From the NCBI GenBank assembly GCA_000175855.1, contig ACYB01000013.1, positions 1 through 5,516 of the forward strand: 5,516 nucleotides of DNA, read 5' to 3'. The DNA is from Raphidiopsis brookii D9 (GTDB lineage Bacteria > Cyanobacteriota > Cyanobacteriia > Cyanobacteriales > Nostocaceae). Position numbers and translations under genes: made by a program. Within the stretch, counting starts at the first letter, position 1; every line of letters starts with the position of its first letter. Under the pieces are notes generated by a model, which did not search any database, was not told where the DNA came from, and saw nothing but the letters and a program-made list of their open reading frames with translations. This document shows positions 1-5,516 of this stretch, in pieces.

Positions 1-49
1 CTTTTTACAGTATCTCTAACCTGCATTATTCATGAAGGCAAAAACAGGA
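1..49. repeat. Left copy of a cluster-flanking inverted repeat (perfect core 16..49, imperfect extension to base 1)
   Basis: Bases 16..49 (ctaacctgcattattcatgaaggcaaaaacagga) are the exact reverse complement of 5350..5383. Outward of the core the copies still align after a 2-nt indel (a tatctc block, then a ttttt block) up to base 1. The copy is therefore probably truncated by the window edge. Similarity stops abruptly on the inner side at base 50. Confidence 0.9.
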
Positions 50-173
50 AAAACAAAACCTAACATTTATACCCAATTTATGGCGGAACTAACTTAATAA
101 GTAAGGCATTTACTGATAAAATCTGAACGGTACTAAAATTAAGTATCGCCAGAAGTCATTCGTCGTAGGGTGC

Positions 174-178
174 GGGAG
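174..178 (+). promoter_or_regulatory. Shine-Dalgarno-like GGGAG, 5 nt upstream of ATG 184
   Basis: GGGAG lies at 174..178 and ATG at 184. An in-frame TAG at 166..168 closes the frame upstream, so 184 is the first possible ATG. Confidence 0.45.
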
Positions 179-183
179 TAAAT

Positions 184-647
184 ATGCAGTATCAGACCAC
201 TATTGAGCCAATATCTATACAAAAGCAGTTCCCTCTGACTACTGTAGGAGCGCTGGTTATCAATTCTCTCGGACAGGTCTTAATTGTTAAATCTACGAAG
301 TGGCGGGGTGCTTGGGGTGTACCAGGGGAAAAGTAGATTGGGCTGAAACTCTAGAATCTGCACTTTTGAGGGAGTTTCGGGAAGAAGTCGGGTTAGACTT
401 AACTAATGTGCGTTTTGCGTTGCTACAAGAAGCAGTGCTGGACTCACAATTTGTGCGACCTGCCCATTTTATTATGATCAACTATTACGCATTTTCACGT
501 AAAGATACGATTACACCTAATGAAGAAATTGAGGAATGGGCTTGGGTGACTCCCGCACAAGCAAAGGAATATCCTCTCAATAGTTATACCCAAGTATTGA
601 TTGAGGATTTTGTAGAAAATAACATTGGTAGTTTATATAGGAATTAG
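184..647 (+). pseudogene. Nudix hydrolase, frame broken by a 1-nt deficit at the GGGG/AAAA run (325..332); either a pseudogene or a homopolymer sequencing error
   Basis: Frame 1 from ATG 184 reads [50 protein letters not shown] and stops at TAG 334..336. Frame 3 continues [23 protein letters not shown], a perfect Nudix box GX5EX7REUXEEXGU, and runs to TAG 645..647. Adding one G (CCAGGGGGAAAA) would give WGVPGGKVDW and a typical ~154-aa Nudix protein. Confidence 0.8.
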
Positions 648-658
648 GTCTAAGAATA

Positions 659-1378
659 ATGCTGAAAAAAGCACTGGTGACTGGATCATCATCGGGAATT
701 GGTAAGGCGATCGCTCTCGATTTAGCTGCTAAAGGATTTGATGTAGCATTTCATTGTCATAAAAGTGTGGAAGCCTGTAATCAAGCCCGTCAGGAAGGTG
801 CTAAGTACGGCGTAAAAACTGTTGCTTTACAAGCGGATCTGAGAAATCCTGAACAAGCGGAGTTTTTGGTCAAAAATGCTGCTGAGGAATTGGGAGGTCT
901 ATCTGTCGTTGTCAATAATGTGGGTAACTACTTAGACAGACCAACGAGCCAATTATCAGTAGAAGAATGGCATGAAATTATTAATTCTAATCTCCATGGG
1001 ACATTTTATGTCACTAAAGCTGCACTACCTTACCTGAAAGCTGCTAATGGGGGACGTATCATTAATATTGGTTGTGCTGGTGCCCAAAATCTCCTAGCGC
1101 GTTACACTAACACACCTTACTTAATTGCTAAAACTGGCATTATTATCTACTCAAGATCTTTAGCAAAGGAAGTAATTACAGATAAAATTACTGTTAATGT
1201 TGTATCTCCAGGAATAGCAGAAAATTCCTTTGATTTAGAGGAATCTCTACCTGAACTACCTACTAAGCGACCTGCAACTTTACAAGAACTTGTTCATGCA
1301 GCTTGGTTTTTTATTAGTCCAGAATCTGATTATATCACAGGACAGGTATTAGACGTTTCGGGAGGATGGAGGTTGTAA
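659..1378 (+). CDS. Short-chain dehydrogenase/reductase (SDR) family oxidoreductase; candidate pteridine/sepiapterin-type reductase by context only
   Basis: The 239-aa ORF starts 11 nt after the Nudix stop. It has the N-terminal TGSSSGIGKAIA dinucleotide-binding motif, NNVG, YLIAK (YxxxK, 1118..1132), VNVVSPG and a C-terminal ITGQVLDVSGG. The usual catalytic Ser region reads NIGCAGA. Confidence 0.9.
   Translation: MLKKALVTGSSSGIGKAIALDLAAKGFDVAFHCHKSVEACNQARQEGAKYGVKTVALQADLRNPEQAEFLVKNAAEELGGLSVVVNNVGNYLDRPTSQLSVEEWHEIINSNLHGTFYVTKAALPYLKAANGGRIINIGCAGAQNLLARYTNTPYLIAKTGIIIYSRSLAKEVITDKITVNVVSPGIAENSFDLEESLPELPTKRPATLQELVHAAWFFISPESDYITGQVLDVSGGWRL
707..714. repeat. HIP1 octamer GCGATCGC
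   Basis: Exact GCGATCGC inside the SDR gene. Confidence 0.95.
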
Positions 1379-1467
1379 TCAGGTGTGATGATGATTTGGT
1401 TATTTTTGCTCAATGCTTGTGAACAGCTAATAAAAAACTATTGTCTATCAAAAAAAGGATTGGAAAT

Positions 1468-2820
1468 ATGTTGACGATTGAATACATTTATGAAATACAT
1501 GAAAAATATCATGATGCTTTGCAAGTAAAAGTAGAAGAATTTACAATTGGTGATAAAAAATTTAATTTTAATACTGACTCAGCAATTTTAGGAGTGATTA
1601 ATCTTTCTAATGATTCTTGGTACAGAGAAAGCGTATGTTTAAGTTCAGAACAAGCTATTCGCAGAGGATTAGTATTAAAGGCTCAAGGTGCTGATATTAT
1701 AGATATTGGCGCAGAATCTACTTTAGAAAAAGCAGAAAGAGTTGAGGATATTCGCCAAAATTCCCAAATTTTACCAGTGCTAAGATCTCTGAGTCAACAA
1801 GGGGTTTTAACTTCTATTGAAACTTATTATCCTCAAGTGGCTAGAGAATGTTTACAAGCTGGCGCTAATGTGATTAATCTAACGGGTGCTTTTGATAGTG
1901 AGAAAATTTATCAAGCTGTATCTGAATTTGACGCTGGGGTGATTATCTGTTATGTTCAAGGGAAAAATGTCAGAGAAGTTGGTGATTTTGATTTTGGTGA
2001 TGATCCGACAAAATTAATGTATGAATATTTTGCTAATGAAATAGAAATAGCAGCTAAATTTGGGGTGAGAAAAATTTTTGTTGATGCTGGTTTGGGGTTT
2101 TATTATAAGAATCTCCAGGATAGTTCTTTGCGAATTCGTTATCAAATGAAAACTTTTTTGACTACTTTTAGACTGAGAAAATTAGGTTTTCCTGTCTGTC
2201 ATGCTCTCCCTCACGCTTTTGAATATTTTGGGGAAGAAGTAAGAAGTGCAGAATCATTTTTTGCGGTTTTAGCAGCATTAGGAAAAACAGATTTATTCAG
2301 AACTCATGAAGTTCCTAAAGTTAAAGCAGTGTTAGATACACTGTATTCATTTTTAATTATCCAATTATTGGGTAATTTAGGATATAATGATGACTTCAAA
2401 CCGGAATCTGAATCTTTTTTAGAAACTTGGATAATTGGTAAGGAATTCAGATTTGAAGCTGCTCACCAATTACCGAATCATGATGGTAAATGTGCTAGAT
2501 TACATGATCATTCTTGGCGCGGTGTTGTCTATGTTGCAGGGGATAAGCTGATAAACTCAGGTGTTAAACAGGGGATGATTATGGATTATGGTGATATATC
2601 AAAATACATAAAACCCCTGTTGGAAAATTATCTGGATCATTACCATTTAAATGAATCCACAGGTTTAGCTAATCCTACCAGTGAAGCGATCGCTAAATGG
2701 ATTTATGAACAGCTTGAACCCCAAATTCCTGGACTTGTCGCAGTTAGAATTGATGAAACTTGCACCAGTCAATGTATTTACTCAAAAGGAAAAGTTAATT
2801 TTTTTGGGCTTTTAAATTAA
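1468..2820 (+). CDS. Fusion protein: divergent dihydropteroate-synthase-like pterin-binding domain plus QueD/6-pyruvoyl-tetrahydropterin synthase (COG0720) domain
   Basis: The frame is uninterrupted from 1441 to 2820. ATG 1468 is preferred as the start because AAGGA lies 8 nt upstream; the TTG 1441 of the ORF track is possible. Both domains lie in one frame. There is no stop and no in-frame ATG or GTG at the junction (2353..2430), only a TTG at 2368. Confidence 0.88.
   Translation: MLTIEYIYEIHEKYHDALQVKVEEFTIGDKKFNFNTDSAILGVINLSNDSWYRESVCLSSEQAIRRGLVLKAQGADIIDIGAESTLEKAERVEDIRQNSQILPVLRSLSQQGVLTSIETYYPQVARECLQAGANVINLTGAFDSEKIYQAVSEFDAGVIICYVQGKNVREVGDFDFGDDPTKLMYEYFANEIEIAAKFGVRKIFVDAGLGFYYKNLQDSSLRIRYQMKTFLTTFRLRKLGFPVCHALPHAFEYFGEEVRSAESFFAVLAALGKTDLFRTHEVPKVKAVLDTLYSFLIIQLLGNLGYNDDFKPESESFLETWIIGKEFRFEAAHQLPNHDGKCARLHDHSWRGVVYVAGDKLINSGVKQGMIMDYGDISKYIKPLLENYLDHYHLNESTGLANPTSEAIAKWIYEQLEPQIPGLVAVRIDETCTSQCIYSKGKVNFFGLLN
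1579..2352 (+). other. DHPS-like (pterin-binding) domain with altered substrate loops
   Basis: Blocks are collinear with E. coli FolP as I remember it. ILGVINLSNDSW matches VMGILNVTPDSF. GADIIDIGAESTLEKA matches GATIIDVGGESTRPGA. TSIETY matches SVDTS. VINLTG matches IINDI. FVDAGLGFYYKNL matches LLDPGFGFGKNL. DLFRTHEV matches HIIRVHDV. The GMSRKS block is replaced by CHALPHA. Confidence 0.8.
2431..2790 (+). other. QueD / PTPS (6-carboxy- or 6-pyruvoyl-tetrahydropterin synthase) domain
   Basis: FRFEAAHQLPNHDGKCARLHDHSW, LDHYHLNE, NPTSEAIAKWIYEQLEP and DETCTSQCIY closely parallel E. coli QueD (FTFEAAHRLP..GHKCGRLHGHSF, LDHHYLND, NPTSEVLAKWIWDQVKP, KETCTAGCIY; from memory). The catalytic Cys and the three His zinc ligands are present. 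Confidence 0.88.
2686..2693. repeat. HIP1 octamer GCGATCGC
   Basis: Exact GCGATCGC inside the QueD-like domain. Confidence 0.95.
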
Positions 2821-2830
2821 CATAAACAGC

Positions 2831-3355
2831 TTATAAATTGATAGACAAACTCACATCAGAACAGTCTAATTTTTGCAGGAGTTGTGAAATAGGTTCTCTA
2901 GAAAACGGTTCTATCCAATCTGGAGCAATTTCTGCTAATGGAACTAAAACAAAGGCTCTCTGGGTCATTCGAGGATGGGGAATTTGTAAATCTGGTGTTT
3001 CTAAAATCAAGTTATCAAATAATAGTACATCTAAATCTAGGGTTCTAGGTCCCCAACGTTCTTGACGAACTCGACCAAATTCTTGTTCAATATTGAGCAG
3101 AGTTTCTAGCAATTTATAGGGACTAAGTTGCACTTCTAAAATAGCAGCACCGTTTAAATAATCTGGTTGTGATGGTCCGCCTACGGGAGCGGTTCTGTAC
3201 CAACTAGATTGGGCTTTTATGGTAATACCTGGAGTTTTTTCCAGAGTTTTAATTGCACCTTCTAAAATGGCTAAAGATTCCCCTATATTGCTACCAAGAG
3301 CGATCGCACTTAATGAAGGTTTTATCGTTGTTCTCAGGTCAGATATATCAATCAT
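2831..3355 (-). CDS. folK: 2-amino-4-hydroxy-6-hydroxymethyldihydropteridine pyrophosphokinase (HPPK)
   Basis: The 174-aa ORF contains AIALGSNIG, SSWYRTAPVG, QPDYLNGA, GRVRQERWGPRTLDLDVLLF, IPHPRM and RAFVLVPLAEIAP. All are collinear with the hallmark HPPK blocks of E. coli FolK. Confidence 0.93.
   Translation of the reverse strand: MIDISDLRTTIKPSLSAIALGSNIGESLAILEGAIKTLEKTPGITIKAQSSWYRTAPVGGPSQPDYLNGAAILEVQLSPYKLLETLLNIEQEFGRVRQERWGPRTLDLDVLLFDNLILETPDLQIPHPRMTQRAFVLVPLAEIAPDWIEPFSREPISQLLQKLDCSDVSLSINL
3300..3307. repeat. HIP1 octamer GCGATCGC
   Basis: Exact GCGATCGC inside folK. Confidence 0.95.
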
Positions 3356-3520
3356 AAATTTGTAGATGGTAGATGTCAGGAAATTATTAACATAATAATA
3401 ACATATTATCAGATATTTTCACAAAATTGCTTGATCTAAAAAACTGAATTTAGAGTATCATATAACTGATAACTACTGATTTAATTAACCAGGTTCATCA
3501 ACACCAAGGAATTTACTATT

Positions 3521-4519
3521 ATGTCTACAATCTCCAACGGCTTTGAAAAAGTATATGTCCATCCTAGTCAATTTCCCAACAAGGTTTATCAAGATTATTT
3601 AGATTGCTTTTCTGTAGGTAAAATAAATCATAAATTTCATTATGACAGTGTTAAACAAAGTCAGAAATGGTTAAAAATTCATGAATATTATTCTCCAGCT
3701 AGAACCAATGATGATTGTATTAATGCCTATGCAGTATGTTTTCAAAAAACTGCGGAATTTCTGGATATTAATACCAATATCCAAGTAATTGGATTAGGTT
3801 GTGGCGGTGGTGCAAAAGATCATCTTTTAGTATCTTATCTCTTCAATACAGAAAGGGAAATCATTTATTATCCTATTGATGTTAGTTTATCTCTGGCTTT
3901 AATTTCCGGTCAAAAAATTAGGGAATCTTATCCTCAAGTCTCTATACAGCCAATTGTTTGTGATTTACCTTGTGCTGATGATTTAATATTCCATCTTCAT
4001 GATCAAGGAGAAGGACACAGAAAGATCATCACATTTTTTGGGATGATTCCTAATTTTACTCCTGATGAAATATTGCCTATTTTAAGTAATTTTCTCCAAC
4101 CAGGAGATATTTTACTCATGAGTGCAAACTTAGCACCAGGAGACGATTATCTAACAGGAATTAACAAGATTTTGCCACAGTATGATAATGAATTAACCAA
4201 AGATTGGTTAATGACAGTGTTAGTTGACGCAGGGATAAATCGAGACCATGGGACTATTAAATTTTCCCTAAAAGATGATCCAAACCATCAAGAATTAACA
4301 AGAATTAATGCTCAGTTTGAAGTAGAAACTAATATAGATTTGAAATTAGATGATCAAATCATGCACTGGAAAAATGGTGATCAAATTCAATTATTTTTCT
4401 CCTATCGTTATACAACTACTAAACTGCAAAACATTCTCAAACAATATGATATTATCATCCTAGATTATTGGGAAGGTGCAAATCAAGAAGAGGGAGTTTA
4501 TTTTTGTCAAAAGATATAA
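3521..4519 (+). CDS. SAM-dependent methyltransferase of the EgtD / histidine-specific methyltransferase fold (Methyltransf_33-like), substrate unknown
   Basis: The 332-aa ORF has AAGGA 10 nt upstream of its ATG. Its blocks are collinear with mycobacterial EgtD as I remember it. HKFHYDSV..HEYYSPARTN matches KWFYDAVGS..PEYYPTRTE. VIGLGCGGGAKDHLL matches LVELGSGTSEKTRMLL. YYPIDVS..YPQVSIQPIVCDL matches FIPFDVD..YPGIEIDAVCGDF. ITFFGMIPNFTPDE..LQPGDILLMSANL matches VVFLGSTIGNLTPAP..LQPGDSLLLGTDL. Confidence 0.82.
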   Translation: MSTISNGFEKVYVHPSQFPNKVYQDYLDCFSVGKINHKFHYDSVKQSQKWLKIHEYYSPARTNDDCINAYAVCFQKTAEFLDINTNIQVIGLGCGGGAKDHLLVSYLFNTEREIIYYPIDVSLSLALISGQKIRESYPQVSIQPIVCDLPCADDLIFHLHDQGEGHRKIITFFGMIPNFTPDEILPILSNFLQPGDILLMSANLAPGDDYLTGINKILPQYDNELTKDWLMTVLVDAGINRDHGTIKFSLKDDPNHQELTRINAQFEVETNIDLKLDDQIMHWKNGDQIQLFFSYRYTTTKLQNILKQYDIIILDYWEGANQEEGVYFCQKI

Positions 4520-4626
4520 AACAAAAACATCTCCTTGTAGGTAGGGTTTGCAAAAATAAGCCAAGGACATTAGAGGATGTTTGAAAAGTCTAATTTGGGC
4601 GATTAGAAATCACATCTACACAGACA

Positions 4627-4646
4627 AAACCTGCCTACGCAGGTTT
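4627..4646. terminator. Perfect 8-bp stem / 4-nt loop hairpin between the convergent methyltransferase and folB genes; weak bidirectional terminator candidate or dispersed-repeat hairpin
   Basis: The hairpin is aaacctgc (4627..4634), ctac, gcaggttt (4639..4646). T-rich sequence follows on both strands: tttcaaattcttaattttt on + and ttttgtctg on -. The GC core is only 5 bp, so terminator strength is doubtful. Confidence 0.4.
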
Positions 4647-4685
4647 CAAATTCTTAATTTTTCGTATATTAATTTGTATAAATCT

Positions 4686-4704
4686 GGCGGGCAAGATGCC
4701 CACC
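4686..4704. repeat. GC-rich mini-hairpin ggcgggca-aga-tgcccacc, resembling short dispersed hairpin repeats of Nostocales genomes
   Basis: gggca (4689..4693) pairs with tgccc (4697..4701) across a 3-nt loop. The stem extends by gg/cc with one mismatch. It is a GC island inside AT-rich intergenic DNA. The resemblance to genome-wide repeats is from memory only. Confidence 0.35.
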
Positions 4705-4771
4705 CCACAATATCTAACAGTGGTAAAAATTCATACTTTCCTTCAGCAAGTCAAAAAAATAGACATTTGCT

Positions 4772-5139
4772 TCATAAATTTGATTTGCTTCTAGTCAATT
4801 CAATGCGAATATTACCATCAAAATCAGGAATTGGTGCAGCAGGTTTAATGAGAGTAACTTGTACTTGGGTAGTCAGACTACTTTCTTGAAGAATAGCATC
4901 AGCGATCGCACCTGCCAACCTTTCCAATAAATCAAATTTAGATGTTGTCAGCAAGTTTTGGACTAAACTAATAACACTACGATAATCTACTGTATCTTTA
5001 ATAGCATCAGTCTTTGCAGCTTGAGCAAGATCCACCCATAATTTCAAATCTACCTCAAACCATTGTCCTAATACCTTTTCCTCCGGTAATACCCAACATA
5101 ACCATAACCGCGAATCCCTGTCAAATGAATACAGTCCAT
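4772..5139 (-). pseudogene. folB: Dihydroneopterin aldolase, frame broken by a 1-nt deficit near 5087..5097; either a pseudogene or a homopolymer sequencing error
   Basis: On the minus strand, ATG 5139 reads MDCIHLTGIRGYGYVG and then runs out of frame to TAG (5070..5068). The -1 frame continues (V)LPEEKVLGQWFEVDLKLWVDLAQAAKTDAIKDTVDYRSVISLVQNLLTTSKFDLLERLAGAIADAIL...LIKPAAP...IRIELTR. Together these reproduce the full FolB pattern (GxxGxxxEE..Q.F.VD..DTVDY..ERLA..KP), about 122 aa. One extra G in GTTGGG, or one extra T in TATTA, restores the frame. Confidence 0.8.
4902..4909. repeat. HIP1 octamer GCGATCGC
   Basis: Exact GCGATCGC inside folB. Confidence 0.95.
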
Positions 5140-5169
5140 AAAACTCTGATTATAAATCATCAACTGACC

Positions 5170-5211
5170 ATTTTAGATTTTAAATTAAATAACCCAGACC
5201 AAATCTAAAAT
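5170..5211. repeat. 11-bp perfect inverted repeat with a 20-nt spacer, upstream of folB
   Basis: attttagattt (5170..5180) is the reverse complement of aaatctaaaat (5201..5211). The sequence is AT-only, so the match is partly expected by composition. Confidence 0.5.
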
Positions 5212-5218
5212 TAAATTC

Positions 5219-5239
5219 AGATAAATTAAGAATTTATCT
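5219..5239. promoter_or_regulatory. Perfect 9-3-9 palindrome agataaatt-aag-aatttatct, a candidate dimeric regulator binding site upstream of folB
   Basis: 5219..5227 is the exact reverse complement of 5231..5239. The site lies 80-100 nt upstream of the folB start (5139), in the non-coding stretch between folB and the right inverted repeat. Confidence 0.35.
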
Positions 5240-5349
5240 TTCTATAATGTTTTTACATTCATCTATTACGAATGAAAGCAGCAGAAATTATTCAGCAAGC
5301 CCTATTTAATTTTCCAGTAGTTGCACTTAGTAATGTAAGTTGCTAGTTA

Positions 5350-5399
5350 TCCTGTTTTTGCCTTCATGAATAATGCAGGTTAGTGAGATAGGCAAAAAT
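5350..5399. repeat. Right copy of the cluster-flanking inverted repeat (perfect core 5350..5383, imperfect outward extension)
   Basis: 5350..5383 is the exact reverse complement of 16..49. gagata (5385..5390) and aaaaa (5394..5398) continue the alignment with left bases 11..16 and 2..6. The unit also self-pairs: tttttgcc (5355..5362) with ggcaaaaa (5391..5398). Confidence 0.9.
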
Positions 5400-5516
5400 A
5401 TTTCCTAGTGTCTGTAACCACTGATTAAAGCAGAATTAAATCTAGTCAATATACACACGATGTAGACTTTACAGTTGTAGTTTAGTCTTTCCAGTCTTTT
5501 ATATAAACTTGACAAG

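Follow-up and report, generated by a model that had tools for sequence, protein, structure and literature searches.

A gene cluster around a dihydropteroate synthase paralogue in Raphidiopsis brookii D9 and other bacteria: a candidate pathway to a pterin conjugate other than folate

What could a cyanobacterium make with a set of folate-type genes that stand beside a methyltransferase having no role in folate synthesis? This question is raised by a 5,516-nucleotide stretch of Raphidiopsis brookii D9 (GenBank assembly GCA_000175855.1, contig ACYB01000013.1, positions 1 to 5,516 of the forward strand), the whole of which is termed the window hereafter. Seven genes are gathered in it, encoding a Nudix hydrolase, a short-chain dehydrogenase/reductase (SDR), a paralogue of dihydropteroate synthase (DHPS) designated as DHPSL, a QueD-type homologue of 6-pyruvoyl-tetrahydropterin synthase (PTPS), 6-hydroxymethyl-dihydropterin pyrophosphokinase (HPPK, FolK), an EgtD-like methyltransferase, and dihydroneopterin aldolase (FolB). 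The evidence assembled here leans, with modest confidence, toward a pathway to a pterin conjugate other than folate, in which DHPSL would use pterin pyrophosphate without p-aminobenzoate (pABA). The searchable literature offered no description of a module in which a DHPS paralogue is accompanied by an SDR and an EgtD-like methyltransferase; it yielded general comparative genomics of folate synthesis, notes on the reductase Tm8-3, and residue data for EgtD and PTPS.

The central member of the cluster is DHPSL, the homologues of which are 295 amino acids in length and 65-97% identical. The protein scored below the equivalog cut-off for DHPS (TIGR01496, 115.3 versus 162.6 bits), and by sequence it matched only DHPS among the solved structures, with a best E value of about 6e-26. 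Its AlphaFold2 model is a TIM barrel (pLDDT 75, pTM 0.80), and the 50 best-scoring Foldseek matches of this model in the PDB were all DHPS, with TM scores of about 0.7. Residues were mapped by profile alignment to the Escherichia coli DHPS, the sequence of which was verified against 1AJ0. The E. coli residues Asn22, Asn115, Asp185, Phe190, Arg255, and His257 are kept in DHPSL, where Asn22, Asn115, Asp185, Arg255, and His257 are invariant, while Asp96 is replaced by an invariant Glu, Thr62-Arg63-Pro64 of loop 2 by Thr-Leu-Glu, and Ser219-Arg220-Lys221 by Val-Cys-His. The same hallmarks were observed in more divergent full-length members, and an exhaustive profile search returned about 117 DHPSL representatives at E ≤1e-30 among 10,467 relatives carrying the Pterin_bind domain. 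From the DHPS structures, we take the retained residues to be those that hold the pterin and the pyrophosphate, and the lost ones to be the p-aminobenzoate site, so that DHPSL appears to have lost the site for pABA. The divergent DHPS motifs noticed in the initial annotation are thus borne out, and its view that the cluster is not one for housekeeping folate synthesis is supported by the score below the cut-off, the absence of the pABA/loop-2 residues, and the coexistence of a canonical FolP in a verrucomicrobial genome. In the latter (contig L088), DHPSL is accompanied at a distance of 7 kb by a FolP that is 49% identical to that of E. coli.

Proteins of the DHPS fold that make no pABA-derived dihydropteroate, and that coexist with FolP or replace it, include the mycobacterial FolP2/Rv1207 and the DHPS-like enzyme of archaeal methanopterin synthesis, the latter of which uses the same pterin pyrophosphate but another arylamine. 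Against FolP2/Rv1207 (2vp8), DHPSL scored 53 bits, and against ordinary DHPS up to 95 bits, so that it is no nearer to the former. With 16.7 versus 256 bits on TIGR00284, the cluster is analogous to the methanopterin system and not a member of it, and no methanopterin genes were seen near DHPSL, although the neighbours were annotated in few loci only.

The family is rare, and its neighbourhood is conserved. A profile scan of one genome per species detected DHPS-like relatives in 511 of 185,579 species genomes, and the best 80 loci were subjected to locus analysis. Cyanobacteria of scattered genera account for 47 of them (67-98% identity), including Dolichospermum/Anabaena, Scytonema, Brasilonema, Rivularia, Trichodesmium erythraeum IMS101, Moorena, Okeania, Symploca, Lyngbya PCC 8106, Hormoscilla, and Prochloron-like symbionts, while no Synechocystis, Synechococcus, Prochlorococcus, Microcystis, or Nostoc occurred among these 47. 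The other 33 loci (63-67% identity) are mostly labelled Verrucomicrobia, with a few other labels. A universal housekeeping operon, doubted already in the initial annotation, is not supported by such a distribution.

To count the linkage, all open reading frames of the loci were clustered, and presence within 8 kb of DHPSL was scored in the 47 cyanobacterial loci. The SDR gene lies directly upstream of DHPSL in all 47, followed in frequency by HPPK (36, often adjoining the methyltransferase gene), the methyltransferase (33), Nudix (31), FolB (22), a distant relative of MurL (19), PTPS (16), and a thioredoxin-reductase-like flavoprotein (12). Gene order and orientation vary from genus to genus, an argument that the linkage is functional and not inherited. 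The SDR/DHPSL pair is tandemly duplicated in Lyngbya PCC 8106 (L025), in a metagenome-assembled genome of Trichodesmium (L026), and in T. erythraeum IMS101 (L027); two HPPK genes stand in the same region of Lyngbya PCC 8106 as the duplicated pair. The two partners absent from the window are the MurL relative (460-480 amino acids, e.g., L018 9100-10539), which usually lies directly 3' of DHPSL and has no match in Pfam but scores 84 versus 700 bits on the NCBIfam MurL model, and the flavoprotein (e.g., L008 3753-4739).

Outside the cyanobacteria, verrucomicrobial DHPSL occurs either alone or convergent with the methyltransferase gene, as in the cultured Pedosphaera parvula, and a metagenome-assembled genome of Pseudomonadota carries FolB-methyltransferase opposite DHPSL-SDR. 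Moreover, the best homologues of the methyltransferase subfamily come from the same organisms as the DHPSL family. The methyltransferase, sharing its taxonomic distribution with DHPSL and adjacent to it in three phyla, can therefore be regarded as a true partner, as had been proposed earlier. A more divergent, high-GC DHPS-like member (P0384; loci L103 and L104) was met beside a DUF3117 gene in an actinobacterial-type context, so the DHPS-like family reaches beyond the three phyla examined; a link to FolP2 through this neighbour was considered and dropped, since the best solved match of P0384 was the Thermus DHPS and not Rv1207.

The SDR passes the TmpR model NF012208 with 372.5 versus 325 bits over model positions 1-233 of 233. 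The FolM/PTR1 pteridine reductases carry the cofactor motif TGX3RXG (PMC1971073), instead of which TGSSSGIG was found here, and the score on the pteridine reductase model NF006598 was 132.9 versus 288 bits; by motif and score, FolM/PTR1 and sepiapterin reductase were both ruled out. Tm8-3, a FabG-like enzyme recovered from soil DNA by functional metagenomics under selection for trimethoprim resistance, reduces dihydrofolate (PMC3675766) and is inferred to be the prototype of the NF012208 family. By its family score, the SDR is accordingly predicted to be a dihydrofolate/dihydropteridine reductase. The difference from the prototype lies in the setting, because the cluster SDR is the upstream neighbour of a DHPS paralogue in every cyanobacterial locus, which suggests that its native substrate is the product of DHPSL. 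To our knowledge, TmpR/Tm8-3 is known only as a stand-alone determinant of trimethoprim resistance from soil DNA.

The enzymes that would supply the pterin are of a more familiar kind. FolB passes TIGR00525 after repair of its frame (93.5 versus 72.15 bits), and HPPK is well above its own cut-off (Table 1). The HPPKs of cyanobacteria lacking the cluster are 68-75% identical to that of the window, approximately the same as cluster HPPKs of other orders, and FolK and FolB here may be the only, housekeeping copies of the organism. The Nudix protein reached 20.6 versus 103 bits on the NudB model NF006961, by which a NudB orthologue was ruled out; it is a candidate dihydroneopterin-triphosphate pyrophosphatase on gene context. 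In a nostocalean genome without the cluster (L099 8001-9122), HPPK is followed by an unrelated Nudix gene of 183 amino acids, which may encode the housekeeping pyrophosphatase partner.

The methyltransferase shares the Methyltransf_33 fold of EgtD and EasF, with the S-adenosylmethionine (SAM) motif conserved, as appear to be the residues for the alpha-amine and carboxylate, but it is far below the cut-offs of both (TIGR03438 for EgtD, 68.1 versus 290.9 bits), stands without egtB or egtC, and is linked to pterin genes. In EgtD, Tyr56, Asn166, Tyr206, and Ser284 serve the carboxylate/amine side and Glu282 the imidazole side (PMC8593015). Equivalents of Asn166, Tyr206, Thr213, and Ser284 are invariant in the subfamily, while Glu282 is replaced by an invariant Phe and the Tyr56 position is variable, the C-terminal part of this alignment being weak. 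In Anabaena sp. 54 (L005, about position 10319), the methyltransferase gene bears, close to the 5' end, a tandem insertion of 12 nt, AACGGCTTTGAA, which keeps the frame.

The PTPS is predicted to be of the ordinary QueD (6-carboxytetrahydropterin synthase) type. At a QueD equivalog cut-off of 89.25 bits, the window copy scored 89.4 and that of a 96% identical metagenome scaffold (L001) 97.3 bits, and the zinc/catalytic motif reads CARLHGH in the latter and CARLHDH in the window, where the start of the gene is frameshifted. The PTPS-III enzymes that replace FolB have Glu instead of the active-site Cys (PMC2229834), and the Cys retained here rules out such a substitute for FolB. Unlike a queuosine-type QueD, the cluster PTPS has no queC or queE nearby and is found in a third of the clusters. 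The branch of PTPS plus sepiapterin/pteridine reductase that had been discerned in the initial annotation was consequently not upheld, for the SDR is of the TmpR type and tied to DHPSL in 47 of 47 loci, and an ordinary QueD accompanies it in 16.

The observations concern family membership, linkage, conserved and lost residues, and distribution among taxa; substrates, order of steps, and product are a proposal built on them, which runs as follows. Dihydroneopterin triphosphate, provided by a FolE encoded elsewhere, would be dephosphorylated, with the Nudix protein as the candidate enzyme. Judged by family membership, FolB would then cleave the product to 6-hydroxymethyl-dihydropterin, which HPPK would pyrophosphorylate. 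The committed step would be that of DHPSL, which may take 6-hydroxymethyl-dihydropterin pyrophosphate and join its pterin-6-methyl group to a nucleophile different from pABA, because the p-aminobenzoate site has apparently been lost. The TmpR-type SDR would reduce the dihydro product of DHPSL to the tetrahydro form; that Tm8-3 is cross-active with dihydrofolate would agree with a native substrate resembling pteroate. The EgtD-like enzyme may N-methylate an amino-acid-type amine, either on the acceptor or on the conjugate, while QueD, the MurL-like enzyme, and the thioredoxin-reductase-like flavoprotein would be optional additions in other species. MurL is an epimerase acting on a terminal glutamate, and a MurL-like member is compatible with an amino-acid-bearing product. 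The more detailed proposal, that DHPSL, methyltransferase, and SDR together make a reduced, pABA-free tetrahydropteroate analogue on an N-methylated amino-acid-type acceptor, used as a metabolite or cofactor by some filamentous cyanobacteria, Pedosphaera-type Verrucomicrobia, and some Proteobacteria, is put forward tentatively, as a possibility that we would rate below even.

Several points weigh against this proposal. Lys221, which is important for pterin binding in DHPS, is replaced by His in DHPSL, so that even the use of pterin pyrophosphate is a prediction. The functions assigned to the DHPSL and methyltransferase subfamilies are likewise predictions from sequence, and the acceptor substrate of DHPSL is a guess. 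The coexistence of DHPSL with a canonical FolP was shown in a single verrucomicrobial genome. In Nodularia spumigena (L097/L098 8001-10687), HPPK, the methyltransferase, and a short MurL-like gene are present without SDR or DHPSL within 8 kb, which is either what is left of the cluster or a sub-module functioning independently of DHPSL, and in most verrucomicrobial loci the methyltransferase is missing from the 8 kb around DHPSL; the module is therefore not an obligatory one. Finally, the window taken as it reads would not provide an active pathway, owing to frameshifts that are set out below.

The features of the window are collected in Table 1. Six-frame listing of the open reading frames together with profile searches confirmed all the Pfam domains named in the initial annotation and their positions, and no folE, pab, folC, folA, queC/E, or glycosyltransferase frame was found in the window, as had been stated there; only its count of six genes has to be raised to seven, which are present as separate, intact genes in three assemblies 99.3-99.6% identical to the window and in five further relatives. 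The frames left in the six-frame listing are antisense to the seven genes, and no further credible gene was seen among them.

Table 1. Features of the 5,516-nucleotide window
Feature	Positions	Strand	Evidence and state
Insertion sequence right-end remnant, 92 nt	13..104	-	tip at about 13-16, points away from cluster; 95.7% identical to L089 2058-2150
Nudix hydrolase	184..647	+	PF00293, 82 bits after frame repair; frameshifted, G5 to G4 at 321-324
SDR, TmpR family (dihydropteridine/dihydrofolate reductase type)	659..1378	+	NF012208, 372.5 bits; intact
DHPS paralogue DHPSL, Pterin_bind	1468..2352	+	PF00809, 104 bits (103.8); stop codon lost, T4 to T5 at 2350
Former DHPSL-PTPS spacer, 35 nt, read through in window	2353..2387	+	alignments to relatives
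QueD-type PTPS	2388..2820	+	PF01242, 106 bits; start frameshifted, C-terminus altered, G40D
HPPK (FolK)	2831..3355	-	TIGR01498, 151.8 versus 54.1 bits; intact
Divergent HPPK/methyltransferase intergenic region, presumed promoters	3356..3520	.	92-97% conserved in L001, L002, L005-L009
EgtD-like N-methyltransferase (Methyltransf_33), SAM-dependent	3521..4519	+	PF10017, 78.7 bits; intact; not EgtD
FolB (dihydroneopterin aldolase)	4772..5139	-	118 bits (Pfam) after repair; frameshifted, A3 to A2 at about 5087; alternative start 5160
Tip of same insertion sequence right end, 36 nt	5350..5386	+	points away from cluster; 34-nt perfect inverted repeat with 16-49

The window is 95-99% identical to contigs of Dolichospermum/Anabaena and contains four HIP1 octamers (GCGATCGC) against zero expected, both of which assign it to a nostocalean cyanobacterium. 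No credible match to a riboswitch or other RNA was obtained from Rfam; the sole match at E ≤1, a below-threshold snoRNA model at 3995-4090, was set aside as chance. In the spacer between the methyltransferase and FolB genes, about 77 nt at 4580-4660 are not present in L001 and contain the hairpin CCTGCCTACGCAGG; a 30-nt core of this segment also occurs three times in the Prochloron locus L038, so that a short dispersed repeat is indicated.

The seven genes are not all intact in the window, and the feature most prominent in the initial annotation, a gene fusing the DHPS-like and PTPS domains, is bound up with this damage. The open reading frame at 1468-2820 encodes 450 amino acids, with Pterin_bind at the N-terminus and PTPS at the C-terminus. 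Its best 120 database homologues are nevertheless all stand-alone proteins of about 295 amino acids covering its first two thirds only, and every relative has two separate genes, so the fusion is specific to the window. In L001, seven intact genes encode Nudix (154 amino acids), SDR (239), the DHPS-like protein (295), PTPS (141), HPPK (174), the methyltransferase (332), and FolB (129). Even closer are L094 (GCA_026929835.1, contig JAPTYE010000068.1), L095, and L096, the three assemblies mentioned above, which retain all seven genes intact; Nudix is whole at 154 amino acids in L001 and L094-L096, and FolB at 122-129 amino acids in relatives. The nearest intact copy is the 5.9-kb contig of L094, the HPPK of which is labelled Cylindrospermopsis raciborskii, the other close relatives being Dolichospermum/Anabaena; contamination or transfer could account for this mismatch of labels.

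Between the window and L094-L096 there are about 17 substitutions, and in six homopolymers the run length differs by one base. The runs change, from L094-L096 to the window, from C4 to C3 at 72, G5 to G4 at 324, T4 to T5 at 2350, A4 to A3 at 2397, T6 to T7 at 2799, and A3 to A2 at 5087. Five of the six break or merge reading frames, and four of the seven genes are affected. The change at 2350 removes the stop of DHPSL, and through that at 2397 the PTPS start comes to lie in the frame of the gene before it; the fused frame arises because of these two, the 35-nt spacer happening to be open. This spacer has one 11-nt tandem copy fewer than in L001, as has that of L094, in which DHPSL and PTPS are separate genes. 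Nudix and FolB are broken by the changes at 324 and 5087, respectively (for FolB as seen by three-frame translations), and the C-terminus of PTPS is altered by the one at 2799. In addition, G40D in PTPS (window 2506-2511, CAT GAT CAT, His-Asp-His instead of the His-Gly-His of relatives) is a substitution of the window only and sits between the two zinc-binding histidines of the Cys-x3-His-Gly-His motif.

The surroundings of the block were also examined, as the initial annotation had described a repeat-bounded layout. The inverted repeat is real, consisting of a perfect 34-nt core (16-49 versus 5350-5383) within 66 nt at 80% identity. By an exact-match scan of metagenome contigs, the core was traced to one end of an insertion sequence (IS) of 1.76 kb at L089 388-2150, which has matching terminal inverted repeats and encodes a 449-amino-acid transposase of the DDE_Tnp_1_4 type; window positions 5351-5516 equal L089 2115-2280 at 96%, comprising the IS tip plus the flank of the IS. 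The flanking repeats are two remnants of one and the same IS end. The left remnant is absent from L001 and L005-L009 and present in L094. In seven more distant relatives (L001, L002, and L005-L009), homology to the window ends exactly at 100, and in five of these seven, which reach the right end of the block, it ends at 5349; beyond these points lie other neighbours, among them genes for a glyoxalase and a tRNA synthetase. The vicinity of the cluster has therefore been rearranged with IS involvement in this lineage. The topology resembles that of a transposase-less cassette. No target-site duplication or direct repeat was seen beside the IS tips, the IS flank gave no match to plasmids, and L094 carries both remnants at the same site, its right flank, differing by an indel of about 500 nt, being rejected as a sign of transposition; with no target-site duplication and L094 at the same site, movement of the block as a whole is not supported by any evidence.

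With these data the first alternative can be weighed, which concerns this copy only, namely that the frameshifts and the fusion are real and that the cluster is decaying into pseudogenes after IS-mediated rearrangement. Five frame-changing indels in four genes, the G40D exchange, unique to the window, in the zinc motif of QueD, remnants of IS ends to the left and right together with flanks that differ from those of L001 and L005-L009, and six non-synonymous changes among ten coding differences from L094-L096 (four being synonymous) would accord with decay. All six indels are nonetheless changes of a single base in homopolymers of three to seven bases, a pattern typical of homopolymer sequencing error, three independent and nearly identical assemblies are intact with the same IS remnants, and nonsense substitutions and larger deletions are absent. 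Selection cannot be measured from as few as ten coding differences, and the substitutions unique to the window (12 synonymous, 7 non-synonymous) are too small in number for relaxed selection to be read from them. Sequencing error was thus judged the likelier cause, by a clear distance, and true decay unlikely though deserving of notice. The fusion gene is probably an artefact, and it is not a designed feature of the pathway, whether error or decay produced it.

A less probable alternative is that of a housekeeping folate operon, in which DHPSL would be a true dihydropteroate synthase, the SDR a dihydrofolate reductase, and the product tetrahydrofolate. The resemblance to the bacterial folate pterin branch (FolQ/NudB, FolB, FolK, FolP, FolA) is close, the enzyme families appearing in the same logical order with all pterin-branch steps represented; FolB and HPPK score above the cut-offs of their equivalog models, DHPSL shares the DHPS fold and most of the pterin-pyrophosphate residues, the SDR family is named for dihydrofolate reduction, dihydrofolate reductase is listed as missing in Prochlorococcus (PMC1971073), and, the HPPKs of cluster-free cyanobacteria being no more distant than cluster HPPKs of other orders, FolK may be the sole copy. 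Against this reading, DHPSL is without Arg63, Pro64, Ser219, Arg220, and Lys221 and falls short of the DHPS cut-off, the reductase is an SDR and not FolA, no folC or pab gene is included, the co-distributed methyltransferase has no role in folate synthesis, the distribution is patchy, and a canonical FolP stands alongside DHPSL in L088.

Least probable is an antifolate-insensitive back-up pair, DHPSL and the SDR replacing the sulfonamide- and trimethoprim-sensitive steps for self-protection or resistance to natural antifolates, since, for all that the two are strictly linked, that the SDR meets a trimethoprim-resistance model with a prototype selected for such resistance, and that DHPSL matches Sul1-Sul4 in NCBIfam and, by sequence, Sul1-Sul3 in the PDB, Sul3 (the only Sul protein for which an alignment was inspected) retains the Ser-Arg-Lys motif that DHPSL has lost, DHPSL is 65% conserved across phyla, unlike a resistance variant, and both the methyltransferase and the verrucomicrobial DHPSL without SDR are left unexplained. 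Both of these readings are weakened by the loss of the pABA residues, the rarity of the family, the coexistence of canonical FolP, and the unexplained methyltransferase, and a pathway to a pterin conjugate other than folate is the reading to which we return.

If DHPSL does couple pterin pyrophosphate to an acceptor other than pABA, the cluster would mark a branch of pterin metabolism so far undiscovered, shared by cyanobacteria that form blooms or fix nitrogen in the sea (Dolichospermum, Trichodesmium) and by Verrucomicrobia common in soil and fresh water, and a native role would be provided for the TmpR/Tm8-3 reductase. Two public annotations, automatic and widespread, given despite scores below the cut-offs, "dihydropteroate synthase" for DHPSL and "L-histidine N-alpha-methyltransferase" for the methyltransferase, would also be corrected. 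The hypothesis is directly testable, as Pedosphaera parvula and several cluster-bearing cyanobacteria are in culture. The cluster thus represents a well-supported lead to a new pterin compound in ecologically important bacteria.

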